IMG/VR virus record: IMGVR_UViG_3300031834_000006
Coordinates: 1 to 58,600 of that record
DNA from: a virus
Taxonomy: Duplodnaviria; Caudoviricetes
Length of the DNA stretch: 58,600 nucleotides
Reading direction: 5' to 3' (one strand)
Positions 6,208 through 29,948 of this stretch are shown one piece after another. The notes beneath the pieces are model-generated. The model made no database searches and was not told where the DNA came from. It saw only the letters and a program-made list of their open reading frames with translations. The first letter of the stretch is position 1; each line of letters begins with the position of its first letter. The position numbers and the translations under genes are program-made.

Positions 6208-6425
6208 AAAACTGTCTACCACATACCCTCTTATATATTCTTTTTTCTAGACATGGTCAAAGACCATGCACTGGACAGTTTTGACCTTTATTGTAACAAT
6301 GTAACTTTTGTTGACAAATCAATGAGTTATATAAATAACTGTCTACAACAACTGTCCAGTGCATGGTCAAATCACTTTTATTTTGAAATACTTTTCAAAG
6401 TGGTGGGTGTGGATGTAGACAGTTA
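6208..6425. repeat. 218-bp non-coding palindromic element, copy 1
   Basis: Highly similar to 29731-29948; terminal IR AACTGTCTAC / GTAGACAGTT; internal perfect 19-bp IR at 6262-6280 / 6350-6368. Confidence 0.9.
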
Positions 6426-6475
6426 TAGGTCATTTTAGGTACTCAAATGAACTGTAGTTCCCAATAACTTTTGCG

Positions 6476-6778: not shown

Positions 6779-7362
6779 TGGAACTTCTTTGATATTGTGT
6801 GAACTCGATCTAGAAAGTCGTGCAGGTTGCTGGTGCCTTTTGCGTAATTGCACGTAACGCAGCACGGAACGCAGTTGTCGTAAGTGTAGCCCACCTTGTT
6901 TTGCAGTCGGTCAATTCCCCAAGTTTTGTTTTCAACTGGTGTTTCGCCGCAGAAAAAGCAAGGTCTTTCAAATAATTCCAGCATTTCGTCCTTGGTTAGC
7001 GTGTGCGCAAGGCCCCGGCTCTTTGCAGAACTTGCGTTCTTTGTGCTCCACGCTTTAAAACGTGCGTCCCGGCTATTGCCCAACGTTCTTTTGTAGTGCT
7101 TTAAAGGCCTATTTACGGCTTTTTTTCTTTGGTTATACCAGTTTACTCTTCCTAACGTGGTGAAAAACATTCCCCCGGCAACGCTTTGACTGTACGCGTA
7201 AAAAACTTTGCTACCAAAAACTTCGTAACGCCTAAACTTTGCTTCTGGATTCAGTTTTATCCACGCACGAAGGGCTTGCCACTCCGCGCCGGACAAAGTT
7301 TTGGTGCTGGGAACTAGGAAGCCAGCACGCCTGTGAGCCTTTATTTTTGCTTCTAAATCCAA
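6775..7362 (-). CDS. HNH endonuclease
   Basis: CFFCG...GIDRLQNKVGYTYDNCVPCCVTCNYAKG zinc-finger HNH signature. Confidence 0.85.
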   Translation of the reverse strand: MDLEAKIKAHRRAGFLVPSTKTLSGAEWQALRAWIKLNPEAKFRRYEVFGSKVFYAYSQSVAGGMFFTTLGRVNWYNQRKKAVNRPLKHYKRTLGNSRDARFKAWSTKNASSAKSRGLAHTLTKDEMLELFERPCFFCGETPVENKTWGIDRLQNKVGYTYDNCVPCCVTCNYAKGTSNLHDFLDRVHTISKKFQ

Positions 7363-7842
7363 TTACTAAGCATTAAAGCATAATTTTGCGCCGTTCCAAA
7401 GAGAATTTTTTTTTGCAGGGGTGTATATATAGTATATAGAGTTGGAAAAAAAAATTGGCCACCCCCCAGTAGCCCCGCCGTGCACGCTGGTGCCCGCCCC
7501 CAGATCCTGCTAGATTTACCCAATTTGGCCCATCTAACAGTGAATCATGCGTCATGTACCGTGATTCATGGTCCATAACTCGTTGATACTGAAGCCTTAG
7601 TACTTTCAACTTGTTACAACGTATATAATACGGAGTCCAGTTTCTGGGTTCTGGATGCTGGGTTCTTGGGTCCGGCTCCGGCGGGGCTGGATGCGTAGGA
7701 CAAGCAACGTCCTATGGTGCTCTGGTATTACCCCGGGCATAGGACATTGCTTGTCCTACCCCGCATCCTGCACCGTGGATCTTGCATCTTGCATCCTGCA
7801 CCGTGTACCTTGGACCGCAGGGTACACTTGCGCGGTGCGGTG

Positions 7843-7935
7843 TACTACAAACCTAGTAACAAGATGCTTGGTGCTTGGTACTACAAACTTAGTACTTGTT
7901 AGTTTAAGCACTACTACAAACCTAGTACTTGTTAG
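7843..7935 (+). repeat. Triple direct repeat TACTACAAAC(C/T)TAGTA
   Basis: Copies start at 7843, 7879 and 7912; the last two match over 24 bp with 1 mismatch. Confidence 0.85.
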
Positions 7936-8067
7936 ACTAATCTAACGGGTGCTTTTCAACCCCCAAACCTTGTTAGTTAGCCTAACACTTTGAAAATAGT
8001 TTCGGCCCTGCAACCCTTGTAAACACTAAGAAAACTACCCGTTTGTGCCTTGGGTAAAAAATAATTG

Positions 8068-8095
8068 TAGACAGTTTCAACGGTAAGTGTAGCTT
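8068..8095 (+). promoter_or_regulatory. Putative early promoter upstream of the ribozyme array
   Basis: TAGACA-N16-TAGCTT preceded by an A-rich UP-like tract; lies ~30 nt before hammerhead 1. Confidence 0.4.
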
Positions 8096-8128
8096 GTGGT
8101 CGTTGCTGACAGCGGCGGCCAAACCAAA

Positions 8129-8182
8129 CCACCTGACGAAGGTCTCCGGCGGGAGACCGAAACCCCCTTGCGGGGGTCGTGG
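8129..8182 (+). ncRNA. Hammerhead ribozyme type I, copy 1 (predicted cleavage after C8178)
   Basis: CCAC CUGACGA A GGUCUCC-GGCG-GGAGACC GAAA CCCCC-UUGC-GGGGG UC^GUGG: complete catalytic core and three stems. Confidence 0.92.
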
Positions 8183-8215
8183 ACGCAAACAAGTCCCACT
8201 TACCAACCAACCACC

Positions 8216-8599
8216 ATGAAACAAGTAGACCTAAATATCGGGTTGGCCATTGGCCAGCAAAACAACGCACTGAGTTTAGCCCGTTGCAATCTCGGGCTGT
8301 CTCGTTTCGGGTTTTTGCCCGTACAACACCGCGTGTACGTTCGCGGGGGTTACGACGTACGGGGTTCCCAAAGCGGCGGCGAGAGCACTTACGCGGTGCG
8401 CTGCGCAGTGCTTGGGTCCCACTACGCAGCGGGGATATCCAACGAAGTGCCTGAGCGCATCCACGCATTGGCCGTTTGGCTGGACCAAGAGTGCATCGCG
8501 GCGGTGCCCCGTTGCGCAACCCCACCGTTCTTGGTGGGTCCAGCGGCTCACAAGTGGGGCGGCTGTTTTGAGGCACAGCTCTGGATCAGCGTAGACTAA
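8216..8599 (+). CDS. Early hypothetical protein (cargo of hammerhead 1)
   Basis: 127 aa, MKQVDLNIGL...; ATG follows an AC-rich leader; stop is 7 nt before hammerhead 2. Confidence 0.75.
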   Translation: MKQVDLNIGLAIGQQNNALSLARCNLGLSRFGFLPVQHRVYVRGGYDVRGSQSGGESTYAVRCAVLGSHYAAGISNEVPERIHALAVWLDQECIAAVPRCATPPFLVGPAAHKWGGCFEAQLWISVD

Positions 8600-8606
8600 C
8601 CTAAAA

Positions 8607-8660
8607 CCACCTGACGAGGCCCCTTGCAAGGGCCGAAACCCCCTGTAAAGGGGGTCGTGG
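8607..8660 (+). ncRNA. Hammerhead ribozyme type I, copy 2 (cleavage after C8656)
   Basis: CCAC CUGACGA GGCCC-CUUGCAA-GGGCC GAAA CCCCC-UGUAAA-GGGGG UC^GUGG: canonical core. Confidence 0.95.
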
Positions 8661-8687
8661 ACGCAAACAATAGTCCCAACCAAACCA

Positions 8688-8915
8688 ATGACAAAATTAA
8701 AAGCAATTCACAAAGTTCGGGGTTTTACTCTCACCCTCTATTATGACGGCACAATCTACTCTGATATCAAAAACGGGGTATACGTTGGGTCACTCTGGGA
8801 AGCTGAGAACGAGGGGTGCCTCTATAACCAATCAGGTACTGCTACTTTGCCAGTGCCAGAATCAGTAGTTGAAAAGTTCTGGGCTTTTGAACAAGCATTT
8901 TCTGATTCCCTGTAA
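8688..8915 (+). CDS. Early hypothetical protein (cargo of hammerhead 2)
   Basis: 75 aa ORF filling the interval between two ribozymes. Confidence 0.75.
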   Translation: MTKLKAIHKVRGFTLTLYYDGTIYSDIKNGVYVGSLWEAENEGCLYNQSGTATLPVPESVVEKFWAFEQAFSDSL

Positions 8916-8947
8916 TTTACCAATCAAGCGACCGAACTGTAAACAAA

Positions 8948-9003
8948 CCACCTGACGAAGGTCTCCGGCGGGAGACCGAAACCCCCTTTACAGGGGGTCG
9001 TGG
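8948..9003 (+). ncRNA. Hammerhead ribozyme type I, copy 3 (cleavage after C8999)
   Basis: CCAC CUGACGA A GGUCUCC-GGCG-GGAGACC GAAA CCCCC-UUUACA-GGGGG UC^GUGG. Confidence 0.92.
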
Positions 9004-9036
9004 ACGCAAACAAGTCCCACTTACCAACCAACCACC

Positions 9037-9693
9037 ATGACCACCACCACCACCATAGCTATTGCCGTACGCGTCAACCAATTCGTCAGCGTACAGGCCA
9101 CTTTGTACGCCCACTTGGGGCCTACTCCGGTAGCCCTGCACCGCACCGTGAACCGCGCTGGCTGGACCGTAACCAGCGTGGTTTGCGGTTTTGCAATGGT
9201 GCACGGCCCAACCCGCAACAAGGCCTTGGCGGAGTACCAAAGGGTCCTAATTGACTTGGGCCCCAGCGCGGTTTTGGCGCGGGTTGCGGCGGAGCCCGTT
9301 GCCCCAAGCCCCGATTCGCTCAAACCAGCCCCAACCAAACGGCCCAAGCCCAAGGCGGCTCCAGCCAACGGCGGCAACGCGGTTGCGGTAGCTTACGCGG
9401 TTGCAGAGCGTGCGGGACTTACGGTTGCGGAGCGGGACGCTGTTCTCCGCGCCTTGTGCAAGAGCGGCCCCAACGCTGGCCGATTACTGGCCCAAGCCCC
9501 AGCGCGGTACAAGGACCCGTTAGGCCAAGCCGCTTGGAACGGCTTGCAGCCCAACCCCTACAAAATCCAGCCAAGCTGCGTACTTTTGGCCGCACCTGCG
9601 GAGCGTGCACTGCTGGACAAGCTGGTGCCCAAGAACTGGCCAGTTTGGTTGGACTCAGACGCACGCGCGCTAGTAGAGCTAGGCGTTTGGTAA
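9037..9693 (+). CDS. Early hypothetical protein (cargo of hammerhead 3)
   Basis: 218 aa; two domains joined by a P/K-rich linker; TAA abuts hammerhead 4. Confidence 0.75.
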   Translation: MTTTTTIAIAVRVNQFVSVQATLYAHLGPTPVALHRTVNRAGWTVTSVVCGFAMVHGPTRNKALAEYQRVLIDLGPSAVLARVAAEPVAPSPDSLKPAPTKRPKPKAAPANGGNAVAVAYAVAERAGLTVAERDAVLRALCKSGPNAGRLLAQAPARYKDPLGQAAWNGLQPNPYKIQPSCVLLAAPAERALLDKLVPKNWPVWLDSDARALVELGVW

Positions 9694-9694
9694 A

Positions 9695-9748
9695 CCACCT
9701 GACGATGGCCCCTTGCAAGGGCCGAAACCCCCCTTGCGGGGGTCGTGG
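9695..9748 (+). ncRNA. Hammerhead ribozyme type I, copy 4 (cleavage after C9744)
   Basis: CCAC CUGACGA U GGCCC-CUUGCAA-GGGCC GAAA CCCCC-CUUGC-GGGGG UC^GUGG. Confidence 0.92.
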
Positions 9749-9776
9749 ACGCAAACAATAGTCCCAACCAACCAAA

Positions 9777-9986
9777 ATGAACAACGATCTATCAGATATA
9801 AAACACTACGAGTCAACATTTGACTCGGTCGCCCACGAACTTATCAGCTTGATTGCTGATAGAGAAAAAGAAGTAAAGGGTAGTATAGATAATACCCAAC
9901 TCATCGATGCGTACTACTCATTCAGAGATATCCTTCAAGCAAAAGCCCAACAGCTATACCCAGATTACGACTTCGAGAACTTCTAA
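9777..9986 (+). CDS. Early hypothetical protein (cargo of hammerhead 4)
   Basis: 69 aa acidic helical ORF. Confidence 0.7.
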   Translation: MNNDLSDIKHYESTFDSVAHELISLIADREKEVKGSIDNTQLIDAYYSFRDILQAKAQQLYPDYDFENF

Positions 9987-9990
9987 CATC

Positions 9991-10284
9991 ATGATTATAC
10001 TCTTAAGACAAAGCAACATTAAATTAGGCACCCCTAACGACCACAGTCTAACGTTGGCTGAAGCAGGATTTATCTGGGTCAAATACCTTGAGGTGTTCGA
10101 CGATAGGATTGAGTTCATGCCTCTTGGTCAGCAAGACTATGAACCCACGGCAATTAAAAAAGTTAATGGTGACTGTTGGTTAGAACCCAACACGGGAATC
10201 ATGTACGAATATTTCTTCGTATACCCTTCGGAGTGGGTTCGATCATTACCCCGTCACCTAGAAATCAAACCTAAAACCACCTGA
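9991..10284 (+). CDS. Early hypothetical protein
   Basis: 97 aa from ATG 9991 (MIILLRQSN...); its TGA stop is part of the CUGACGA core of hammerhead 5. Confidence 0.65.
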   Translation: MIILLRQSNIKLGTPNDHSLTLAEAGFIWVKYLEVFDDRIEFMPLGQQDYEPTAIKKVNGDCWLEPNTGIMYEYFFVYPSEWVRSLPRHLEIKPKTT

Positions 10285-10329
10285 CGAGGCCCCTTGCAAG
10301 GGCCGAAACCCCCCTTGCGGGGGTCGTGG
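10277..10329 (+). ncRNA. Hammerhead ribozyme type I, copy 5 (cleavage after C10325)
   Basis: CCAC CUGACGA GGCCC-CUUGCAA-GGGCC GAAA CCCCC-CUUGC-GGGGG UC^GUGG. Confidence 0.95.
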
Positions 10330-10355
10330 ACGCAACCACAACCAACCAACCAACC

Positions 10356-10529
10356 ATGACCACTGAAACAATAGACTGTACCCCTACTTGGGAGTTCGCC
10401 GCCAACGTTTATATCGAAGTCCTACGGAACCCAGACGCGGGTTTCTACGCGGTGCAAACCGCCAAGGACGAAATCCTGCGCTTGGCCCGCACCGTGGACC
10501 AACTCAACCAAATCAACCAAAAACCATGA
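10356..10529 (+). CDS. Early hypothetical protein (first cargo of hammerhead 5)
   Basis: 57 aa, MTTETIDCTPTW...; follows an ACCAACC-repeat leader. Confidence 0.7.
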   Translation: MTTETIDCTPTWEFAANVYIEVLRNPDAGFYAVQTAKDEILRLARTVDQLNQINQKP

Positions 10530-10891
10530 AAATCGAACAAGAATTACGCGCTAGAAAGCTCATCATTACCGCCGATCCCCAGCAGGTCGCCAAAATTACT
10601 GGGGTCAAAGAGCTCCAGTACGGCCGGACCCATGAGGTCTTTGCTGGTGCTCCGTGCCAGTGGAGCCTCGAACGGGGGGCAACCCATACCCTGTACTGCG
10701 GCGAGGGCATTGGACGCGGTACACGCCCTGCCAAACTGCTTAAAACTCGGCTGTACGCGGGTGTGGACGAGCTTGACGACCAGATCGTTTGGCACAAGTG
10801 GAACATACGAACTCTTTGGGAGTTCCCGCTTACCGAAACCGCGTGCGTGCGCGAAGTAACCGCTGAAGAACTCGAAGAACTCCAACCATGA
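10526..10891 (+). CDS. Early hypothetical protein
   Basis: 121 aa, MKIEQELR...; ATGA overlap with the previous gene. Confidence 0.7.
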   Translation: MKIEQELRARKLIITADPQQVAKITGVKELQYGRTHEVFAGAPCQWSLERGATHTLYCGEGIGRGTRPAKLLKTRLYAGVDELDDQIVWHKWNIRTLWEFPLTETACVREVTAEELEELQP

Positions 10892-11037
10892 ACCTTGACC
10901 TACTAATCATTGTGGGCACCACCTACCTTGGCAACGCGCTAATCTTTGGATGGCTGCAAGCCTTGCCTTATACTATAACCATAGTAGCTGCTTCTGCGGC
11001 CATTTGGTTAGTGTTAGTGTTAGGCTGCATCCTGTAA
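10888..11037 (+). CDS. Small hydrophobic membrane protein (not in the ORF track)
   Basis: 49 aa MNLDLLIIVGTTYLGNALIFGWLQALPYTITIVAASAAIWLVLVLGCIL; ATGA-coupled. Confidence 0.6.
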   Translation: MNLDLLIIVGTTYLGNALIFGWLQALPYTITIVAASAAIWLVLVLGCIL

Positions 11038-11054
11038 CTTGAAACCTGAAAACT

Positions 11055-11417
11055 ATGACCAAACAACTGAACTGGAAACCCGTGGTAAGTAGCCTAATTA
11101 AGCTGCTACAAGCGGAAAAATACCGCGTGCTTTACGTGCACGACGGCCAAGACCACCACTACTACCACGAACTGGATTCGTTAAGAACAACCTGTTTTAA
11201 AGCCAGCAAGGCCATTTGCGCGGTTGACGAAGCCTACTTGGTGGTTGAGGACCTAAGTCAGGGTAGCGGCTACACGCTTACGCTTTTCTTGGTCCTTGGA
11301 AACAGCCCAGAAGAAATTGTAGCTGATTGCAGTTGCAATGCACGCTTGGACGAGGTACTAGAAGCCTTTAGCACATTTTGGCAAGGAGCTCCTTGCCCAA
11401 CCAAAACACAACCATGA
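11055..11417 (+). CDS. Early hypothetical protein
   Basis: 120 aa ORF in a coupled operon. Confidence 0.7.
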   Translation: MTKQLNWKPVVSSLIKLLQAEKYRVLYVHDGQDHHYYHELDSLRTTCFKASKAICAVDEAYLVVEDLSQGSGYTLTLFLVLGNSPEEIVADCSCNARLDEVLEAFSTFWQGAPCPTKTQP

Positions 11418-11575
11418 CCACCATATTAAAATTAAACGTTAGGCTTTTGGTGCAGCACCAAGAGGACTTCGATGCCCAGAAATTCGTGGATGAACTCCGC
11501 TACGATTTCTTTGACCCAGCGATCCAAGAAGTAGAAATTATTGAAATCCTTAGCCAAGAACCCCGTGACCTTTAA
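11414..11575 (+). CDS. Early hypothetical protein
   Basis: 53 aa from ATG 11414; ATGA overlap. Confidence 0.6.
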   Translation: MTTILKLNVRLLVQHQEDFDAQKFVDELRYDFFDPAIQEVEIIEILSQEPRDL

Positions 11576-11798
11576 ACTTACGTGCACCCACAAGTGGGGC
11601 CTAATTCAAGCTGGGGAAAACTACCAAGTCCGGCGTAACCCGTACGGGCTTGCGGTTTTTCAAGAAAATGACTTGCCAGCTTGGACCGCGCACCCAACAG
11701 TGGTGCTGGATCCGGAAGGCAAGTGCCACCCTAACAAGTTCTTTACAAACGCACCACAACCATCCCAGATTACGACTTCGAAAACTTCTAAGCCATGA
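11565..11798 (+). CDS. Early hypothetical protein
   Basis: GTG start; fills the operon gap; start position uncertain. Confidence 0.5.
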   Translation: MTFKLTCTHKWGLIQAGENYQVRRNPYGLAVFQENDLPAWTAHPTVVLDPEGKCHPNKFFTNAPQPSQITTSKTSKP

Positions 11799-12085
11799 AA
11801 CCAACAACAGCCATTAAGAAAGCTGGGTCCTTAGTGGGCCAGCTCCAGCGAACCGGAAACGCTTGGGCGTACCTTTGGTACGACCAGCAATACAACGCCT
11901 ACCGCAGCATTAATTACTGCGACTACTGGCAAGCGTACAGCAAACGCCGCACAAGCCTAATTGAAACGGCTTTGCGGCTTTTATTCCCAGACCAAGACCA
12001 AGAACTCGCCGGACTCCAACCAGAGTACCGCAGCGGCCGTTGGCAAAACTGGGTTTGGCAAATCTACCAACAAAACCAAGCATGA
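11795..12085 (+). CDS. Early hypothetical protein (W/Y-rich)
   Basis: 96 aa; ATGA overlap. Confidence 0.7.
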   Translation: MKPTTAIKKAGSLVGQLQRTGNAWAYLWYDQQYNAYRSINYCDYWQAYSKRRTSLIETALRLLFPDQDQELAGLQPEYRSGRWQNWVWQIYQQNQA

Positions 12086-12387
12086 AAACAAAAGAACAAA
12101 TAGAACAGCAAAATAACGCAATCCACGTAGCCCTGCTTTTGGGTGCGCACTACTCCACGCAAGCGGAACAACACAAACTGCGTTTGCCTTGCGGCATTGA
12201 GCTCCTGCTTTGGTGGGACCTTAACAACCAAGTGCATGTGCAGTGCGTTCAGGGCCGTGGATACCACCGCTGTCAACACCCGTTTGAAAGCTCGCGCACT
12301 TTAGCCCGCCGTTGCCAAAGCTACGTTTGGGTTATTACCAAAGACTGGGACCAAGAAAACTACCCAAATAAAAGCACCAATGTTTGA
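12082..12387 (+). CDS. Early hypothetical protein
   Basis: 101 aa from ATG 12082; ATGA overlap. Confidence 0.65.
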   Translation: MKTKEQIEQQNNAIHVALLLGAHYSTQAEQHKLRLPCGIELLLWWDLNNQVHVQCVQGRGYHRCQHPFESSRTLARRCQSYVWVITKDWDQENYPNKSTNV

Positions 12388-12613
12388 CTCCTTAACAACA
12401 ACCGAAAGCGGGGACCTGCGCCAATGCGTTAGCGAAGCGCACGCCACTAACTGCGGGCCTGAACGTTTGTTCAGGGACCACAACGATATTTACGTAGACA
12501 GAAACGCACGTTTCAATTACACTGCGGACCAAATCTGGCGCGGGGGAACAATTCCCAAGCGCAGAGACACAAAAACAAACCAAGAACCCAATATAGATTA
12601 TGCACGGTATTAA
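12380..12613 (+). CDS. Early hypothetical protein
   Basis: 77 aa ORF overlapping both neighbours. Confidence 0.55.
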   Translation: MFDSLTTTESGDLRQCVSEAHATNCGPERLFRDHNDIYVDRNARFNYTADQIWRGGTIPKRRDTKTNQEPNIDYARY

Positions 12614-13034
12614 CGAAATCAAAAAGCAAAACGCACAAGCAAAAGCAAACTACGACAACAGCCGCCAAGGCACTTTCGTAGTACTCCAAAACGGCAACGT
12701 ACTGTTGCGTTTGGGGGCCCACTCAAAGACCATTGAAAGCCGCGACGAAGCCGCCGAGTTCTTGGACCAAGTCCGTGGACGAACCAGCGGTTACGTTCGA
12801 GGCGTGGTGCAGGGGTATTTCACCCAGCCGGACTTCGAACAGGATTTTGAAGACAGCCGCAACGGCACGTACAGCGTGCTGGATAGCGGAGGCATTCTAA
12901 TCCGGAACGGCCTAAGCAGCAAAACTATTGACGAGCCACAGGACATTGTAGAGTTCTTGGGCAAGGTGGTGGACCGCGAAACCGAACTCGTTCGCAACGC
13001 GGTGAAGTCTTACTTTGCTCCGGCCTTGGCATGA
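12600..13034 (+). CDS. Early hypothetical protein with an internal domain duplication
   Basis: YDNSRQGTFVVLQNGNVLLR..SKTIE..EFL repeated as FEDSRNGTYSVLDSGGILIR..SKTID..EFL. Confidence 0.75.
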   Translation: MHGINEIKKQNAQAKANYDNSRQGTFVVLQNGNVLLRLGAHSKTIESRDEAAEFLDQVRGRTSGYVRGVVQGYFTQPDFEQDFEDSRNGTYSVLDSGGILIRNGLSSKTIDEPQDIVEFLGKVVDRETELVRNAVKSYFAPALA

Positions 13035-13111
13035 CCCTGTTCCTATTCTGGATGTTTCTAGTTTGCTCGGTAATGGGCATTGCGGCTTCCATCCTTAACA
13101 TAGCCCTATAA
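13031..13111 (+). CDS. Putative 26-aa membrane peptide
   Basis: MTLFLFWMFLVCSVMGIAASILNIAL; ATGA-coupled; ends just before the terminator. Confidence 0.45.
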   Translation: MTLFLFWMFLVCSVMGIAASILNIAL

Positions 13112-13115
13112 AACC

Positions 13116-13155
13116 AAAGCCCCAAGGTCTAATGAACCTTGGGGCTTTTTTGTTT
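13116..13155. terminator. Bidirectional intrinsic terminator between the convergent early and virion operons
   Basis: AAAGCCCCAAGGT...ACCTTGGGGCTTT stem with a T-run on the plus strand and an A-rich flank. Confidence 0.85.
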
Positions 13156-16100
13156 TACGGGTTTACGGGTATGAACCTTGGCCGCTTTTGTATGGCTTGT
13201 TTTAAGTAGTCAACCCGAGCTTGGCCGTTAGATTCACCGCCGCGCTCAAGCATTTCGCTAAACATATCTTTTTCAAACACAACCCGATCCACCACGTTGC
13301 GTTTTATAATTTGGTTGTAGCGGTCCTTACTAATTCCAACGTCATTTGCTTGGCGTTTAAGTTCCTGCTCGCTTACGCCTAGCTTCTGGAAACCGCTTAC
13401 TATTTTCTGCAACTTACGGGCCGCGAACAAACGTGCGTCTTCCAAGCTAACGTAAACGTCTTCCACCTGTTGCGAGCTCAGGGGTGCCTCTGTTTTAAAC
13501 TTACCCCGCTCGGCCGTAACCGCATCTTGGTCCCTTTTAATTTTACCAAACGCTTGGTGCGCTAGCTTAACCAAGTCGTACCTACGGGTTTGGAAAGGAC
13601 TAAACTCGTTTGCCACTAGCTCCGAAGCCGTGGCCAGCCTTGCGTCTTGGTCGTAAATACTATTGTTAGTGTACGCTTCAAACGCTTGCAAGAACTTCTG
13701 CGGGGACTTCAAACGGTACGCTGAGTTGGCTAAGTACTTAACAACTTTAAACGCGGCTTCCGGCGTGCTATCATTTTCGTACCAAATTTTTCCGCCTTGG
13801 TCGTTTGTATTGTTCCGCGCCTTGGCAATAGCTTCAACGGCAATTTGGGGCGAGAAAAACGCGTGCGCAACGGCCCCAAAAAGAACCGCTGGAGCTTCGT
13901 CTGCGCGTCCGTTTAGCATTAAGTGCGCGGACCTCATAAACGGATCCGTTATAAGCGAAAACGGGTGCACGTACGTAAGGTTCCACATTTTAATTTTGCT
14001 TGGGTCCTGCTGGTCCTTTGCAAAGTAGTAGTTAACGTCCTTTGCCCAAGCCGGAAGGCTATTCCGAATCGACTCTTCTTGGTCGTCTTCAAAACCACCT
14101 ACGGCTTTAAGAATTTCTGGAACCGCGCTGCTTGCAAGCACCAAGCCAAGTCCGGCTAGTCTTTTAATACCCCGAGCCCGTAAAACTGGGTTGCCGGAGT
14201 TAAATTCTTTAAAGCCAACCGAAGTAATGGCAAAGGGTAACCGAACAGTTTCTGCGGTGAACCGGAAATAGCTGTTCATTAGGGTAGCCAACGGGCTGGC
14301 TTGGAAAGCCTTGGCCACGGCCACAACCTCGGACCTACCCTGCGTTGTTTTGCGTACAGTTCGCGCAGCCAATTGTTTAATTTGAGTTTCAGTCCACTTG
14401 GTGGTATTGTACGCGTTAGCCTCGGTTAAAACCTTAACTTCGTGCGAGTAGTACGCGAACTTGTACATCAAATCAATTGCTTCTGCGGCTGAAGCCAGCG
14501 AATCAAAGGCCGAACTAACAGCTTGGTAAGGAGCCTTAACAGCGGTTAGCGTGGCCGAGGCTACCTTGCCCTTGTTTCGAATTGTTTCTTCCAACTTTGC
14601 TAGAAAGTTAACTGGGTCCCCGCTCATTCCGTTTAGCAGGTCCTTTAAAACCCCACCGTTTATGGAGTCCTTTAGACCCAAAGCAATAAGGTCCGAGCCT
14701 AACGGGCCCAGCTCGCTTAGGCTAAACTTTTCGTCGGGTCTAGCAAACTCCGGCAATATTTGCGCGGCGCGGTTTAAGAAGTTCGTACCGTAAATTTCGT
14801 TTAGACCTTTAATAGAGTCGGCAATGTTTGCGGGGCTGGCAATGAAACCATTTGCACCCATGTACAACACGTTGCTAACCATGTTACGGGTATAGAATCC
14901 GGCCGAGCCAAGCGTAAGCATACCCAAGGATTTTCCAATAGCCTTTGCGGTTAGCAGTTCGATTTGGTAAATGAACTGAGCGGCATCACTTTTCGGGGCT
15001 TTGCGGTCCGGGGAGAACGATACTTTAAATGCTTCCTTTACTTCCGGCGGTGCGTAGTAATTTGACAAAGGCTCGCCGCCCAAGGTCTTGGTTGAGTTAA
15101 GCAAGGGCTCGTACAGCCTGTACTTTTCTGGGTCCTTGGCCTTTTCGTCGGCGGTAACTAGGAACCCGTTGTCCAAGCCACCTTGGGCGAACTGGTTAAG
15201 CAGCCTTTGCGTTCCTAAAAAGGTAGACAAGTTCGAGTACGTACGCATGGCGTTTTCAACTGGGTTCTGTATTTCCCCCAGAATTGCAACCAGCTCACGC
15301 GGCACTTCACCCTTTTCCATGAACCGTGTAAGGTCAGTTTTATTAAGAATCTTTCCCGGGATTTCTGGAGTTTCGCCGTGCTGTTCAATGAAGTTATCCA
15401 GCTCAATTGAACCAATGCTTTGGGCACGCGCTTCGGCTTCAACCAAGGCTCTAACTTCCGCGTCCGAATACACCGCGTACAAGTCATTTGAACGCCAGCT
15501 TTTAAAGGTGCGGTTTACCCAAGCCTTTTCAAAGAAGTCCCTTGCTTCTTGCCTTGCTTGCGCAAAGGTTGGATCGTTTTTAATTTTCTCAACGTAGCCT
15601 TCGTCGTGGTGGATTTGGTAGGTGCGGGTAAGGTACACGCCCAAGTTCTCGGTAACCACCGCACGCATTGGATCGTTTGGCCCAAGCGACTCAACCAATT
15701 GCTGGCTTAGCGAATCAATTGCGATACGGAACTCGGTTACCACGTTGGCCACGCGGGGGTTGTTTTGCTCTAGCCGGAACAACGCTTGTTGCTGGGCAAC
15801 CATTGCTGTTTTAACGCCCTTGGCTCGGGCGGCTTGGATTTCCAAAGCGTACGCGGAGTTGGCCGCTGTAATGGCGGCGGTTCGCGTTTGCTTTTCCGGT
15901 GAGTTAGCGAGCTCGGCTTGCAACGTAGTAACCTCGCGCTGGTAAAGTTTTACGTCTTGGTGCGTGGCGTAGTCAGCGCGTGCCTTTATGGTGCCTTGCT
16001 GGTACCTTGCGTACGCTTGGTCAGTTTGTTTGTACTGAGCGTTTAGGGCTTCCAGCTCCGCGTCCCGCGTTGCTTTGGCGGCGGCGCGGTCAGCCGTTGA

Positions 16101-19100
16101 AACGGTTGGGGCCGTGGTGCCCAACGCAACGTTAACATCGTCCAAGTCTACGGTAGGTTCTTTCTTTAACGCGCCCAAGAAAGTCTTGGTTAGTCCGGCC
16201 ACGCGTTGGTTGGCCAAGCTCATTGCACGTTCTTGGTACTGCTTGGCTTCGTACATACGTGGATCCAAGTTTCCGGATGCACGCAACAAGCGGGTTAGCT
16301 TGTTACCAAAGTTGTACTCGCCCGTTACCTCGTTAATTGCTAGGTCATCCAGCGATACTCGGTAAGCTGACTCAATGTCCGGCGAGGTTACCGCAGTAAG
16401 TGCTCGGCTTAACAGAATTTTTGGTTCTTTAGGCTTTGGGTTTAGCGCAAGCGAGCGGTCGCTATCGGGGACCTTGGTTACCTTGTGCTGGCCAAACAAG
16501 ACCCCAGCCGTGTGAGTTTTAGAAACGTATCCAGCAAAACCTTTGTCCTTAATTGCTTTTTCGTACAAAGTAGTGGCGGCGCGGTCATCAAAACGGGCGT
16601 ACCCCAACGCAACACGTTCGTCTCGGCTTGGGAACAGGTCCAAGGGGTCAGCATCGTAGTCGTACAAACTGTCTCCTGCCACCTTAATTTGGTAACGGAA
16701 CTGCCCAATAATGTGTTCGCGCACGTAACTGCTATAACCAAAATACGTTCTTGGTTGGTAAATCTTTTTGTAGTCCCGCTTGCGGTCCTTCTCAGATCCA
16801 ATTCCGCCAGTGCCGTGCATATTAGGGTCTGTGTTTTCTAGTTCCGAGTCAAAGGACCAGTGAGTAAGCTGAACTTCTTTGCCTCGGAACCTTGCTGGTG
16901 CAGCGGACTTGCTGTACCGAATGTCGTTGCTTTGTATATCAAAGCGTTGATCAAGCGGAACTCCCGTGAATGCTTCTGCGGATTTGATTTGCTCGGGATT
17001 AAGTATTATTGTTTCAGAGGAATCTGAATGAGCAGTTCCTGCAAAACGAACTGAATCATATCCATTCTTTAGTAGGTAAGCCCTTGTGTTTTCACCAATT
17101 TTATCCTTACCTGTGATATTTATACCAAGGTGATTCACCAATAAAGATTCAAGCTGATCTTGCCCTTGAGAAACAAGGAATGGTTTGTCTGACTTTACAA
17201 ACAACGATAAAACTTCACCTGTTTGTTTTATGGTTTGATGTGGGTAATCCCCTTCAAAATAACGGCCAACGTATTGCGCTGAATCGGCAATATCTTTTCT
17301 TCCAGAAACAAAAAAACCAATCTTGCTTCCGATTGTCCGAGTATTCTTACCAAGTAACTCGGTAAGAAATTGAGTAACTCCACGAGTTTTTGTTCCGTGA
17401 TATACTCTCTCGTCATACCCCGATGATCGTGCACGTTTTTCAACAAGCTTTTTCGCTTCAGCCGTCTCCTCTGGTGTGATCGTTCCGTCGTTATACTTAG
17501 CTTCAAGCTCAGCGTGGCGAACAAGGTAGTCGGCATCCATTTGTGGCGTTGCAGCGCGGCTGTACCGCAAGTCAATTTGTCCGGTTGGCTCTGCCGCCAA
17601 GTTAACTCGAGGCTGCTGGTAACGCGGCTTTGAGTCGTACGTGGGGTTCTTCATAAAAACCCTTGACCCAACTATAATTGCATCGTCAAAAGTAAGAACG
17701 GGTAGCTTGGTGCGTACGTCAACAAACTCGCTCGACCGTGCTGGGTTGTACGCAATTTCGGCCCATACTTCTGGGTCGTTAATGTCGGCTGGCAATCGGT
17801 CGATCTTAACGTTCTCGCCCCGCACCGTGGCAAGCGGGAACTTGCCGCCGCCCTGCGCAATGGAAATTGGGCTACCCTTTTCAGCTCGGGTAATTACTTG
17901 GCCGTTCTTAACTCTGGCAATGGTTGTATAGCCAAGCACAGTGCTTGCTCTTGCTGTACCTCCCGGCTTGTGCGCGGTAATTGCGTACGTTACTTCTCCG
18001 GCTTCCAACGAACGATTGTAGGTGGGAATGTCGATACGCCAGTCAACTAGCTGGCCCTCGGGAATACCCAAGTCCGCCATTACCTTGCCAATCTTTTCTT
18101 CCTCGTCAGCGGATAATACCTTACCGTCACGGCGAGCAACAATGTATTGCTTAACTTGATCCACGGGCGGAATGGCTTGCGCACCCTTAACTACCCAAGG
18201 ATCTAGTACTTCAACCAAGTCAGCAAAGGTTGCGTTATCAATTTGACCTTCGGCCAAACGAACGGCGGCAACGGCCAGCTCGCCAGAACGTTTGTTCTTG
18301 GTTGCGCTAGCAAAAGCCTTGCTTTCTTGTTCCGTGGTTGGAGCCAAAGCTGCACGGCTAAACTGAATTGTTGGAGCGTTATCGTCCACGGTTAAAGAAT
18401 CACGGGTCCAAGCAACGGACTCAGCAATGGTTCCGTCCGCATTAAGAATAACAAGGCCATCGTAGCCTTGCTTTTCACCCAAGCTCTTAAAGTGTTTTCC
18501 AATGTTACCGTATTCTTCAAACAAGTGCTCGGCCTTAGCGGCTGCCTTTTCTTCGGTTAAGCCCAACGCTTTAAAAACCAAAGCTGGACCCCTTGCTTTG
18601 TCCGATACCTTAACAACCAAGGGCTTCATAAACAATACGTCAAACGTAGTTACTTCTGCTTGGCCCTTTTCTTTTCTAGCTTCTTTGGCGTAGTCTACAG
18701 AACGTGCAGCGTCTGGGGTAGTGTAGTACCCGTAACCGTAAACGCCTTCCGCGCTAGCCTTCATTGGGGTGCGCCCGTCAAACGTTCCGCCGTGGTAACC
18801 CGTAACGTAAAGCGGCTTGCCGTTCGGCGGGTTAACAGCTACCTTGGGTATGCTAAGCTGGTTAAGTATACCTTCTTTTGTAGTGGCGCGGCTGTACCGA
18901 ATGTCCGGTGCAGCTTCGTTGAACCGCTCGCTTAACGGGATTACTCTATCCTTGTTGCGGGTAACGGGGTCTGCGGACTTGATTTGCTCAGGTGAAAAAA
19001 CAACAATAAATTCAGGTCCGTCAACCGCTCCGTCAAAGCCGCGATCAATTATGTCTCCGGTAACATCACCGTTTTCTTTTAGGTAACCAATAGTAACGGG

Positions 19101-19922
19101 CTCACCCTCTTCGTCTTCTGCCAAAGTACCGTCTTCGTAGCGGTAGCCCTCGCCTTGGAAATCATATGGGTTTTCTAATTGCAAGTATACCGAGTAAGCG
19201 TAGTCACCGTATTCTGGCATTGGCTCTTTTGAAAAATAGTTCTCGCCCTCTTCAAACTCTGTAAAAGGACCGTCCTTATCAAAATTCTCACTGGGGGTTG
19301 TGTGGTATGCTTTTACGTTATACCCCGCAGCCTTTGCCGCTGCATCCACCATGCGCTGCGCCGTAGCTGTGTCGTTAGCGGCTACCGCTGCAAGGTAGTC
19401 GGCATCCATTTGTGGCGTTACCGCAGCGCGGCTCCGTTGAATTGTAGGGGCTGCTTGCTCCAAAGGTACTTCTCCGGCTTGGCCCTTGCGCAGCTCAACT
19501 TGTGCCCAGCTCGGGAAACCAAGGCTCTTAGCCAAGTCTTCGGTATTTGCAAAAGCTTCGTTAATGTCCTTGCCCGTGGCCAGTTGGTATACAGCGGCCC
19601 GTGCGTCTTCAATTGTAAACTTCTTGTCCTTTTCGTACCGAGCCCAAACCGCACGCACCGCGTCCACGTTCTTCTTGTTTGACTTCCACTTGGCTGTAAA
19701 CAGCAAGCGCACAGCTTCCCAAGTAATGGATTGAATTTCGCGGGGCAACAAGCCAAAGGTCTTGGCGGCAGCGCGGTACGCTTCGGCGTTGGCCGCGTAC
19801 AAGCCGTTAACACCCAAAATAGAATTGTTAGTAACGTTGCTTGAACCAAAGTTCTGGCTAACCTCAAAGCTGTTTCCGCTTAGGGCTTGCCAGTACAACG
19901 CGGCAACCGCGTGGGTGTCCAT
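13155..19922 (-). CDS. Giant polyvalent internal virion/ejection protein, C-terminal part (several ADP-ribosyltransferase-like modules)
   Basis: 2255 aa; repeated YHG/YHT...G.Y/F...GYDG...PEQIKSA modules; helical C-terminal region; in frame with the upstream 2465-aa ORF across one TAG. Confidence 0.75.
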   Translation of the reverse strand: MDTHAVAALYWQALSGNSFEVSQNFGSSNVTNNSILGVNGLYAANAEAYRAAAKTFGLLPREIQSITWEAVRLLFTAKWKSNKKNVDAVRAVWARYEKDKKFTIEDARAAVYQLATGKDINEAFANTEDLAKSLGFPSWAQVELRKGQAGEVPLEQAAPTIQRSRAAVTPQMDADYLAAVAANDTATAQRMVDAAAKAAGYNVKAYHTTPSENFDKDGPFTEFEEGENYFSKEPMPEYGDYAYSVYLQLENPYDFQGEGYRYEDGTLAEDEEGEPVTIGYLKENGDVTGDIIDRGFDGAVDGPEFIVVFSPEQIKSADPVTRNKDRVIPLSERFNEAAPDIRYSRATTKEGILNQLSIPKVAVNPPNGKPLYVTGYHGGTFDGRTPMKASAEGVYGYGYYTTPDAARSVDYAKEARKEKGQAEVTTFDVLFMKPLVVKVSDKARGPALVFKALGLTEEKAAAKAEHLFEEYGNIGKHFKSLGEKQGYDGLVILNADGTIAESVAWTRDSLTVDDNAPTIQFSRAALAPTTEQESKAFASATKNKRSGELAVAAVRLAEGQIDNATFADLVEVLDPWVVKGAQAIPPVDQVKQYIVARRDGKVLSADEEEKIGKVMADLGIPEGQLVDWRIDIPTYNRSLEAGEVTYAITAHKPGGTARASTVLGYTTIARVKNGQVITRAEKGSPISIAQGGGKFPLATVRGENVKIDRLPADINDPEVWAEIAYNPARSSEFVDVRTKLPVLTFDDAIIVGSRVFMKNPTYDSKPRYQQPRVNLAAEPTGQIDLRYSRAATPQMDADYLVRHAELEAKYNDGTITPEETAEAKKLVEKRARSSGYDERVYHGTKTRGVTQFLTELLGKNTRTIGSKIGFFVSGRKDIADSAQYVGRYFEGDYPHQTIKQTGEVLSLFVKSDKPFLVSQGQDQLESLLVNHLGINITGKDKIGENTRAYLLKNGYDSVRFAGTAHSDSSETIILNPEQIKSAEAFTGVPLDQRFDIQSNDIRYSKSAAPARFRGKEVQLTHWSFDSELENTDPNMHGTGGIGSEKDRKRDYKKIYQPRTYFGYSSYVREHIIGQFRYQIKVAGDSLYDYDADPLDLFPSRDERVALGYARFDDRAATTLYEKAIKDKGFAGYVSKTHTAGVLFGQHKVTKVPDSDRSLALNPKPKEPKILLSRALTAVTSPDIESAYRVSLDDLAINEVTGEYNFGNKLTRLLRASGNLDPRMYEAKQYQERAMSLANQRVAGLTKTFLGALKKEPTVDLDDVNVALGTTAPTVSTADRAAAKATRDAELEALNAQYKQTDQAYARYQQGTIKARADYATHQDVKLYQREVTTLQAELANSPEKQTRTAAITAANSAYALEIQAARAKGVKTAMVAQQQALFRLEQNNPRVANVVTEFRIAIDSLSQQLVESLGPNDPMRAVVTENLGVYLTRTYQIHHDEGYVEKIKNDPTFAQARQEARDFFEKAWVNRTFKSWRSNDLYAVYSDAEVRALVEAEARAQSIGSIELDNFIEQHGETPEIPGKILNKTDLTRFMEKGEVPRELVAILGEIQNPVENAMRTYSNLSTFLGTQRLLNQFAQGGLDNGFLVTADEKAKDPEKYRLYEPLLNSTKTLGGEPLSNYYAPPEVKEAFKVSFSPDRKAPKSDAAQFIYQIELLTAKAIGKSLGMLTLGSAGFYTRNMVSNVLYMGANGFIASPANIADSIKGLNEIYGTNFLNRAAQILPEFARPDEKFSLSELGPLGSDLIALGLKDSINGGVLKDLLNGMSGDPVNFLAKLEETIRNKGKVASATLTAVKAPYQAVSSAFDSLASAAEAIDLMYKFAYYSHEVKVLTEANAYNTTKWTETQIKQLAARTVRKTTQGRSEVVAVAKAFQASPLATLMNSYFRFTAETVRLPFAITSVGFKEFNSGNPVLRARGIKRLAGLGLVLASSAVPEILKAVGGFEDDQEESIRNSLPAWAKDVNYYFAKDQQDPSKIKMWNLTYVHPFSLITDPFMRSAHLMLNGRADEAPAVLFGAVAHAFFSPQIAVEAIAKARNNTNDQGGKIWYENDSTPEAAFKVVKYLANSAYRLKSPQKFLQAFEAYTNNSIYDQDARLATASELVANEFSPFQTRRYDLVKLAHQAFGKIKRDQDAVTAERGKFKTEAPLSSQQVEDVYVSLEDARLFAARKLQKIVSGFQKLGVSEQELKRQANDVGISKDRYNQIIKRNVVDRVVFEKDMFSEMLERGGESNGQARVDYLKQAIQKRPRFIPVNP

Positions 19923-29730: not shown

Positions 29731-29948
29731 AAAACTGTCCACCACATACCCTCTTATATATTCTTTTTTCTAATTAACCCCAAAGACCATGCACTGGACA
29801 GTTTTGACCTTTATTGTAACAATATAACTTTTGTTGGTAAAACAATGAGTTATATAAATAACTGTCTACAACAACTGTCCATTACATTCCTTTTTTCTTT
29901 TTCATTTGAAATACTTTTCAAAGTGGTAGGTGTGTGTGTAGACAGTTA
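29731..29948. repeat. 218-bp non-coding palindromic element, copy 2
   Basis: Same orientation as and high identity to 6208-6425; its end overlaps the terminase stop codon. Confidence 0.9.

Follow-up and report, generated by a model that had tools for sequence, protein, structure and literature searches.

The head of a block of small genes in a 58,600-nt phage genome (IMG/VR virus record IMGVR_UViG_3300031834_000006; estimated to be 97% complete) is occupied by an array of hammerhead-type ribozymes. The whole stretch, which is the genome studied here, is referred to as the window. Five modules lie on its + strand between 8129 and 10355, each made up of the ribozyme, a short predicted 5′ hairpin, a CA-rich leader, and an ATG. 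One module stands before each of the first five genes or gene pairs of the block, and the five copies bound orfA, orfB, orfC, orfD together with orfE, and orfF onward:

8129–8182, + strand: hammerhead copy 1, subtype A; predicted cleavage 8178/8179; leader 8183–8215, running to the ATG of orfA; 66.3 bits with the covariance model built here
8216–8599, + strand: orfA, 127 aa, GC 0.59; phrog_11722, a family of unknown function
8607–8660, + strand: hammerhead copy 2, subtype B, loop III TGTAAA; predicted cleavage 8656/8657; leader 8661–8687
8688–8915, + strand: orfB, 75 aa, GC 0.425; missing in the closest relative, where an unrelated 68-aa gene lies between the same ribozymes
8948–9003, + strand: hammerhead copy 3, subtype A, loop III TTTACA; predicted cleavage 8999/9000; leader 9004–9036
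9037–9693, + strand: orfC, 218 aa, GC 0.63, GC at third codon positions (GC3) 0.69; in most relatives, with or without a ribozyme before it
9695–9748, + strand: hammerhead copy 4, subtype B; predicted cleavage 9744/9745; leader 9749–9776; moves with orfD
9777–9986, + strand: orfD, 69 aa, GC 0.395; at another position in the closest relative and with other neighbors in near-identical strains
9991–10284, + strand: orfE, 97 aa, GC 0.42; absent from the relatives L004 and L006 introduced below; its stop TGA (10282–10284) is the core TGA of copy 5
10277–10329, + strand: hammerhead copy 5, subtype B; predicted cleavage 10325/10326; leader 10330–10355, with a (CAAC)n length polymorphism
10356–10529, + strand: orfF
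10526–10891, + strand: orfG

Identity of the ribozyme copies

A motif pattern for the hammerhead matched the window five times, compared with 0.00 matches expected from 100 shuffles, and the covariance model returned exactly these five copies from all 58.6 kb at E ≤ 1. Each copy reads CCAC-CUGACGA-(helix II)-GAAA-(helix III)-UC/GUGG, the slash marking the predicted cut, and the core (C3 U4 G5 A6 N7 G8 A9, G12 A13 A14, A15.1-U16.1, and H17) is kept in 5/5. When the copies of related genomes are included, CUGANGA..GAAA..UC is kept in all 29 distinct cores (41 copies), with C or U as N7 and C as H17. In a model-based alignment of 34 distinct copies, 93.3% of the cells pair, compared with 40–54% in slid controls. 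Changes on both sides of the pair occur in nine of 16 base pairs (one in helix I, which is A-U in 12 rows and G-C in 21, five in helix II, and three in helix III), and the observed values were reached by 0 of 500 shuffles. RNAalifold applied to a plain MAFFT alignment gave a wrong structure, with helices II and III misaligned. The minimum-energy fold of copies 1–3 is a three-way junction. Taken as structural evidence, this argues strongly for hammerheads of type I, in which helix I is open and helices II and III are capped, and cleavage of all copies is predicted.

Some observations weigh against this assignment. The minimum-energy fold of copies 4 and 5 is a competing long hairpin in which helix II pairs with helix III (predicted at 9692–9751 and 10274–10332, respectively), and such a fold could make their cleavage slower or conditional. 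Between A9 and helix II, copies 1, 3, and 4 carry an extra nucleotide that copies 2 and 5 lack; a strict filter set out in the available part of an earlier survey (Perreault et al, 2011; PMC3088659) excludes sequences with unpaired nucleotides inserted beside the core. Rfam returned no hammerhead from the whole window at the gathering score, and none from 7000–13000 at E ≤ 10. Copy 2, searched as an 81-nt stretch, scored 16.1 bits against Hammerhead_1 (RF00163; threshold 34) in the expected register, and a short-stretch search with copy 1, which has its extra A after A9, gave no match to this family. The Rfam threshold is an operational criterion of the database and not a biochemical definition.

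The copies fall into two subtypes, A (copies 1 and 3), with GGTCTCC-GGCG-GGAGACC as helix II and a common leader, and B (copies 2, 4, and 5), with GGCCC-CTTGCAA-GGGCC. Copies 1 and 3 are the same from 8125 to 8219 and from 8944 to 9040, through ATGA, except for loop III (TTGC versus TTTACA), and share identical stretches of 44 and 48 nt. Loop III is independent of the subtype, with TTGC and TTTACA in A and TGTAAA, CTTGC, and CTTGC in B; the TGTAAA of copy 2 and the TTTACA of copy 3, on identical stems, are exact reverse complements. In these points, a note made earlier from the sequence of the window (the earlier note) had described the repeats accurately. Further inverted loops on the same stem are GCAA/TTGC in helix III (L004) and CGCC/GGCG in helix II (L131); inverted loops were found in three of 10 pairs of the same stem and length, compared with a shuffle mean of 0.42 (P about 0.002). 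Minute inversions in which a hairpin loop flips to its reverse complement are known from non-coding DNA, e.g., chloroplast spacers. The loops observed here fit flipping, at the DNA level, of the perfect hairpins of helices II and III, which, unlike the chloroplast-spacer inversions, would occur inside ribozyme helices and swap GNRA-type loops (GUAA, GCAA) for UUAC and UUGC.

Breakpoints in relatives and exchange between copies

Relatives were found by a leader-specific pattern together with a flanking protein, and all genomes compared are metagenome assemblies. Two are IMG/VR contigs, L004 (flanks ∼90–96% identical to the window) and L006 (∼75%); a second clade consists of the metagenome contigs L146 and L141 (four copies at the contig end), the fragments L131, L137, L147, L151, and L153, and near-duplicates. 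The leader pattern gave 23 metagenome loci, of which 11 had no blastn match to the window and were left out (L132–L136, L138, L142, L143, L148, L150, and L152). L144 and L145 duplicate L146, L149 was left out as a likely duplicate of L131 (same stretches, same identity), and L139 and L140, near-identical to L141 and L146, were excluded from pair counts. According to the covariance model, the window has five copies, L004 has six, L006 three, L146 seven, and L141 at least four. The orders are as follows (Rz, ribozyme copy):

Window: Rz-A, Rz-B, Rz-C, Rz-D-E, Rz-F-G-f11-H-I...
L004: X, Rz-A′, Rz-Y, Rz-C′, Rz-F′-G′, Rz-f11-H-I, Rz-D′-J...
L006: Rz-A, Rz-F, C, H, u, Rz-f4...
L146: Rz-f19, Rz-H, Rz-f20, Rz-A, Rz-f10-u, Rz-C, Rz-f4-f5

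Gene order and content across the array are not common to these genomes, and the breakpoints lie mostly at the repeats, so neither of the outcomes that the earlier note had named as refuting its reading was seen. The comparison thereby supports the core of what the earlier note had proposed, namely, that the repeats are joints at which cassettes are added, deleted, and moved. Between the window and L004, seven events fall into the 4.3-kb array, versus about four breaks in ∼15.5 kb of nearly collinear flanks. Gene X is present in L004 only, with its right edge at copy 1 (event 1). Between ribozymes 1 and 2, orfA and A′ are 52% identical, with flanks of ∼90% (event 2). orfB and Y are unrelated, and the difference begins exactly where module 2 ends (8688) and stops where copy 3 starts (8942; event 3). 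The unit of ribozyme 4, orfD, orfE, and ribozyme 5 corresponds to a single ribozyme in L004 (event 4). The L004 ribozyme after G′ is replaced in the window by 44 nt (10840–10883; the last ∼15 codons of orfG), which resemble the 3′ end of the L004 cargo gene Y (event 5). The ribozyme and D′ of L004, placed ∼1.9 kb further downstream than orfD and its ribozyme in the window, are missing at the matching site of the window (event 6), where a scar is found instead:

11751–11791, + strand: deletion scar of 13 leader-like nt and the last 28 nt of orfD (27/28 identical to 9959–9986)

Event 7 is an indel of gene Z (present in L004; position 12373 of the window). In the second clade, an insertion of 1.2 kb (f19, ribozyme, H, ribozyme, f20, and one flanking ribozyme) is found in L146 and L140 where L137 and L131 have one ribozyme, the block of ribozyme, f20, and ribozyme is placed differently in L146 and L153, and four more events have one edge at a module. 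In total, 13 events were curated by hand from BLAST tables for both clades. At least one edge lies at a ribozyme module in 12 of them, and both edges do in five; several show two repeats in one genome versus one in the other. Among 14 gene-start junctions compared between the window and L004, breaks occur at seven of the seven that have a ribozyme in either genome and at two of the seven that have none (Fisher P = 0.010; P = 0.027 without the two junctions whose ribozyme is in L004 only).

We conclude that the modules probably have two roles: as RNA, they would process the transcript, and as DNA, they would serve as joints for homologous recombination. The role at the DNA level emerges from the comparison of relatives, and the recombination mechanism is what we infer for it. 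Being direct repeats of ∼85–100 nt that are 80–100% identical, the modules would be preferred sites at which the cargo is rearranged, within one genome or between co-infecting relatives. Genes would be replaced, inserted, deleted, and moved in this way, and gene conversion would homogenize the repeats.

Several results weigh against such joints, and some of them speak for an explanation that we consider unlikely, i.e., that the ribozymes only process RNA, with gene gain and loss being due to illegitimate recombination and selection for events at gene borders. In eight of the 13 events, at most one edge lies at a repeat, and in one of these, the Z indel, a ribozyme is at neither edge. The scar at 11751–11791 represents a deletion ending inside orfD and not recombination from repeat to repeat. 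Near-identical strains (see below) differ directly behind the end of orfD (9986) and 6 nt behind its start codon, again outside the ribozymes. When only the ribozymes of the window are counted, the junction test yields P = 0.063, and its statistics comprise just 14 junctions, classified by hand. Ribozymes stand at gene starts, where viable indels end anyway. No single-strand-annealing recombinase was recognized in the window. In unrelated phages with one or two hammerheads (L046/L070/L067, L038/L027, and L084/L062), the ribozymes lie inside collinear blocks, from which it follows that the property of being a joint belongs to arrays of near-identical copies and not to hammerheads as such. What speaks against processing as the sole role is that the signature of two repeats versus one is seen in both clades (copies 4 and 5 of the window versus one in L004; 7075 and 8350 of L146 versus one in L137 and L131), that breaks were found at only two of seven ribozyme-free junctions versus seven of seven with a ribozyme, and that copies have been exchanged within genomes, as follows.

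Ribozyme cores from the same genome had a mean identity of 0.844 (65 pairs), and seven pairs were identical, all of them before unrelated genes. Cores from different genomes that precede the same downstream gene had a mean identity of 0.784 (37 pairs, none identical), close to the background of 0.781 (528 pairs, six identical). Copy 3 of the window equals copy 1 except for loop III and is only 0.74 identical to the copy before orfC′ of L004, despite 94% identity of orfC′ itself. This is the pattern of concerted evolution of the ribozyme copies within genomes, and concerted evolution needs recombination between copies; identical cores before unrelated genes, with orthologous positions differing, likewise require exchange between copies, which processing alone would not provide. 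The earlier note had also held that each gene arrives with its own processing signal. For orfD, this is right, as ribozyme and leader move along with the gene (copy 4 versus the L004 copy at 8593, 0.96). It does not hold in general, given that cores before the same gene are as different (0.784) as the background (0.781), and some genes are preceded by a ribozyme in one genome but not in another.

Cores behind the same upstream gene are slightly more alike (0.818, 32 pairs, versus 0.779), and leaders before the same downstream gene are more alike as well (0.807 versus 0.734), which together indicate that the joints often lie close to the part of the module that is conserved best, around the cleavage site. 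The same pattern would be expected of units with cleavage sites at their ends, as in a route in which cassettes move as RNA and, like retrozymes, are ligated or circularized after cleavage, reverse-copied into DNA, and inserted anew. Such a route is very improbable. No reverse transcriptase was found in the genome, estimated to be 97% complete, and the orfD cassette shares with its L004 counterpart an additional T close to the 5′ end of the core, which places the beginning of the unit upstream of the cleavage site. Moreover, conservation peaks around that site, so homologous crossovers would cluster there anyway.

Near-identical strains were represented by Logan contigs from four of 24 listed sequencing runs; no RNA run was listed. 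In the X2 and X14 contigs, loop III of copy 2 is CTTGC instead of TGTAAA. In X5 and X14, another sequence follows directly after the stop of orfD, and X14 also diverges before 9783. After 10338, one contig of X2 shows an additional CAAC within the leader of copy 5, a (CAAC)n-like tract, which indicates length variation of the slippage type. The contigs of the four runs break inside every ribozyme and leave the cassette order of the window neither confirmed nor contradicted, a further point to be held against the joints. No deletions between copies were seen in these contigs, which leave uncovered bins (e.g., 8570–9105 and 9776–10043 in X8) that are not bridged by any contig. One X2 contig of 831 nt joins 8943 back to 8125 (orfB, ribozyme, orfA) via 45 common nt; the back-joint may stem from a circle or a tandem copy, from genes in another order, or from an artifact of the assembly graph at the identical repeat.

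These breaks, together with the identical stretches of 44 and 48 nt in copies 1 and 3 and the metagenomic origin of all records, raise the question of whether the shuffling is an artifact of assembly, in which co-occurring strains were joined or segments mis-ordered at the repeats; cassette order could be mis-joined across identical stretches of ∼50 nt in such assemblies, which would undermine the comparison. We regard this as improbable. Independent assemblies from different samples agree by at least 99.9% across two to three ribozymes (L146 versus L140, 99.97% over 3.1 kb; L141 versus L139, 99.9% over 2.6 kb). Sequences unique to one genome (orfB versus Y; X, Z, and orfE) are beyond what mis-ordering can create, the 41-nt scar left behind by a lost cassette did not arise by assembly, and reads are usually longer than the identical stretches.

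If the modules are joints as proposed, the cassettes might even be of a natural plug-and-play kind, an extension that we put forward tentatively and consider less probable than the joints themselves. Recombination between neighboring copies would excise units as small DNA circles or tandem copies, which would re-enter at any other copy of the ribozyme, be it in the phage of origin or in one that co-infects the cell. The 819-nt unit of orfA and orfB implied by the joint from 8943 to 8125 would be an example. Cut free of their context, the units would be expressed wherever they landed, and the ribozyme would be retained partly for evolvability.

Leader, cargo genes, and surroundings of the array

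After the predicted cut and the adjoining GUGG, the modules continue with ACGCAA..AGUCCCA and then a CA-rich stretch up to the ATG. After cleavage, a 5′-terminal GGAC/GUCC hairpin of −4.9 to −6.4 kcal mol−1 is predicted; its stability does not stand out from that of shuffles (z −1.0 to −1.4), and the stem shows no variation. We offer this hairpin as a suggestion. None of the 29 long open reading frames (ORFs) of the window is preceded by a Shine-Dalgarno (SD)-like motif, and the leaders are rich in A and C; the module leader is for this reason probably a translation signal, and a host with SD-independent initiation is suggested. According to the proposed mechanism, the hammerheads would cut a polycistronic transcript into separately translated mRNAs. 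Cleavage after C17 would free the downstream cistron with a fixed 5′-OH leader and leave the upstream cistron ending in helix III. Because cleavage would fix the 5′ end, the leader of each cistron, CA-rich, unstructured, and devoid of an SD motif, would be independent of the sequence upstream. Both orfE (TGA at 10282–10284) and G′ of L004 (about position 7600) stop at the TGA of a CUGAYGA core, and the ribozyme core thus doubles as translation terminator for these two genes.

The array forms the head of a + strand block of ∼15 small ORFs (∼8.1–13.1 kb, ∼5 kb in length), flanked by leftward genes that end at 7362 and a giant leftward gene that starts at 13155. Promoter- and terminator-like sites within the block are not more frequent than in shuffles (five promoter-like sites versus 3.3 expected, none of them in the repeats; no terminator-like sites at the repeats). 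As there is no excess of such internal sites and a strong terminator-like hairpin closes the block, we infer that it is transcribed as one polycistronic unit. The remaining features of the block are as follows:

10888–11037, 11055–11417, 11414–11575, 11795–12085, 12082–12387, 12380–12613, and 12600–13034, + strand: small genes without ribozyme; no family found
13116–13148, no strand assigned: strong bidirectional terminator-like hairpin, closing the + strand block

The 14 cargo proteins had no Pfam match above threshold, and only orfA matched a PHROG. The early host-takeover or anti-defense role that the earlier note had suggested for the cargo is a speculative one for proteins without a recognized family. 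Counterparts of orfA in two relatives are 52–53% identical to it, within flanks of ∼90% nucleotide identity. Homologs of orfB in other metagenome contigs are 91–92% identical and those of orfE elsewhere 68–71%; no IMG/VR contig was found in the alignments of orfB and orfE relatives. The ESM Atlas provided no usable match for orfC. The contrast in composition to which the earlier note had drawn attention is real: cargo GC ranges from 0.40 to 0.63 in a genome of 0.485, with the GC-rich orfC at one end and orfB, orfD, and orfE on the AT-richer side (values listed above). GC3 averages 0.46 ± 0.075 in the 29 long ORFs; outliers are orfC (0.69), orfA (0.65), and orfF (0.64), and orfB (0.41), orfD (0.46), and orfE (0.475) are near the genome average.

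The window is the genome of a lytic tailed phage, with genes for terminase, tail fiber, DNA polymerase, and helicase. It also encodes a Holliday-junction resolvase, an exonuclease of the PD-(D/E)XK type, and an endonuclease-VII-like protein, which count in favor of the joints. No integrase was found; a search with PF00589 (tyrosine recombinase) gave no match, whereas the control genomes matched in 14 of 14 cases. A blastn search of 7000–13200 against 50,697 deposited phage records had no match. Thirteen matches of the pattern in genome contigs, all of high GC, were taken as chance: 12 have neither CUGANGA nor GAAA in the 60 nt upstream, and the remaining one (L166) has CUGANGA and no GAAA; they give no clue to the host.

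Other features of the window were recorded in passing. Just 5′ of the small-gene block, 7829–7940 contains three direct copies of a motif of ∼24–30 nt with the inverted repeat GTACTA..TAGTAC, which look like operator sites for a regulator. A near-perfect long hairpin of ∼100 nt lies at 7679–7780, in the divergent intergenic region; microRNA-like Rfam matches at this position were rejected as chance matches caused by the hairpin. A segment of ∼218 nt with a small ORF is present twice (6253–6438 and 29731–29948; 77% aa identity), and its first site (6253–6438) is conserved in relatives. Two adjacent giant ORFs on the − strand, 13155–19922 and 19938–27335 (2255 and 2465 aa), have almost no family matches, and the former has a variable stretch near 16922–17536 compared with the closest relative.

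Relation to known systems and significance

Integron cassettes are small promoterless genes that lie between structured repeats, the attC sites, and are exchanged as units by the IntI integrase. The arrangement described here resembles them in that small promoterless genes are separated by structured repeats. Unlike in integrons, no tyrosine recombinase is present in the window, exchange would be homologous instead of site-specific, and the repeat precedes its gene.

A closer parallel in the logic of the joint is found in the promoter-early stem-loop (PeSL) cassettes of T4-type phages, as far as they are described in the available parts of the respective papers (Arbiol et al, 2010; PMC2839356; Comeau et al, 2014; PMC4122927). 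There, too, regulatory repeats of ∼100 nt surround orphan genes in a hyperplastic region and give expression signals to what they join, and close relatives differ by repeat-bounded indels and replacements, including the signature of two repeats versus one. The differences are that the repeat of the window is a self-cleaving-type ribozyme with a translation leader, acting on RNA, and not a σ70 promoter with a terminator, and that the phage lineage and the genome size are others. Excised mini-circles with one chimeric repeat belong to the PeSL system; in the window, the X2 back-joint may reflect a circle or one of the other arrangements named above.

Clustered hammerheads that flank variable genes in prophages and phages were reported by Perreault et al (2011; PMC3088659), according to whose proposal gene-length mRNAs arise by processing of long phage transcripts. 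As in those clusters, several hammerheads here share a strand and border genes, single or in short blocks, that vary in identity. The comparison of breakpoints, the proposal of recombination joints, the predicted post-cleavage hairpin and CA-rich leader, and the homogenization within genomes go beyond the available part of that paper. Among open-access papers and bioRxiv, no paper was found that ties hammerheads to cassette recombination in phages. What is known, then, are clustered phage hammerheads and the joint logic of PeSL; what the window would add is a repeat of ribozyme and leader as the joint. The layout is also like that of the synthetic insulator RiboJ, which is described as a hammerhead and a short hairpin 5′ of the coding sequence that make the leader independent of context (PMC6206723, available part). 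RiboJ is engineered, whereas the layout of the window is natural and occurs five times, with a presumed insulating effect.

Arrays of this kind may be found elsewhere. A loose hammerhead pattern matched at least 120 IMG/VR stretches, mostly of unrelated phages, and our own descriptor, applied to 119 of those loci, found at least three copies on the same strand in nine, one in 83, and none in 16. Unrelated IMG/VR phages with three to five same-strand hammerheads a few hundred nucleotides apart are L083 (6067–7400), L079/L080, L012, L038, L048, L049, L052, and L107.

Phage hammerhead clusters have been on record since 2011 without an agreed function, and the available part of the literature cited above notes only that the flanked genes differ; the present data tie such clusters to an evolutionary role. 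Repeats that lie at mosaic joints and are homogenized lead to a testable model of how accessory genes could be exchanged while their expression is spared, and the model offers a natural precedent for synthetic ribozyme insulators. The combination of ribozyme and leader provides a handle with which hypervariable islands of accessory genes can be searched for in uncultured phages; if the cargo proves to be counter-defense, hammerhead arrays would be a quick route to such genes. Should the plug-and-play reading be true, the array would be a counterpart of integron or PeSL cassettes that works with a ribozyme and needs no integrase.

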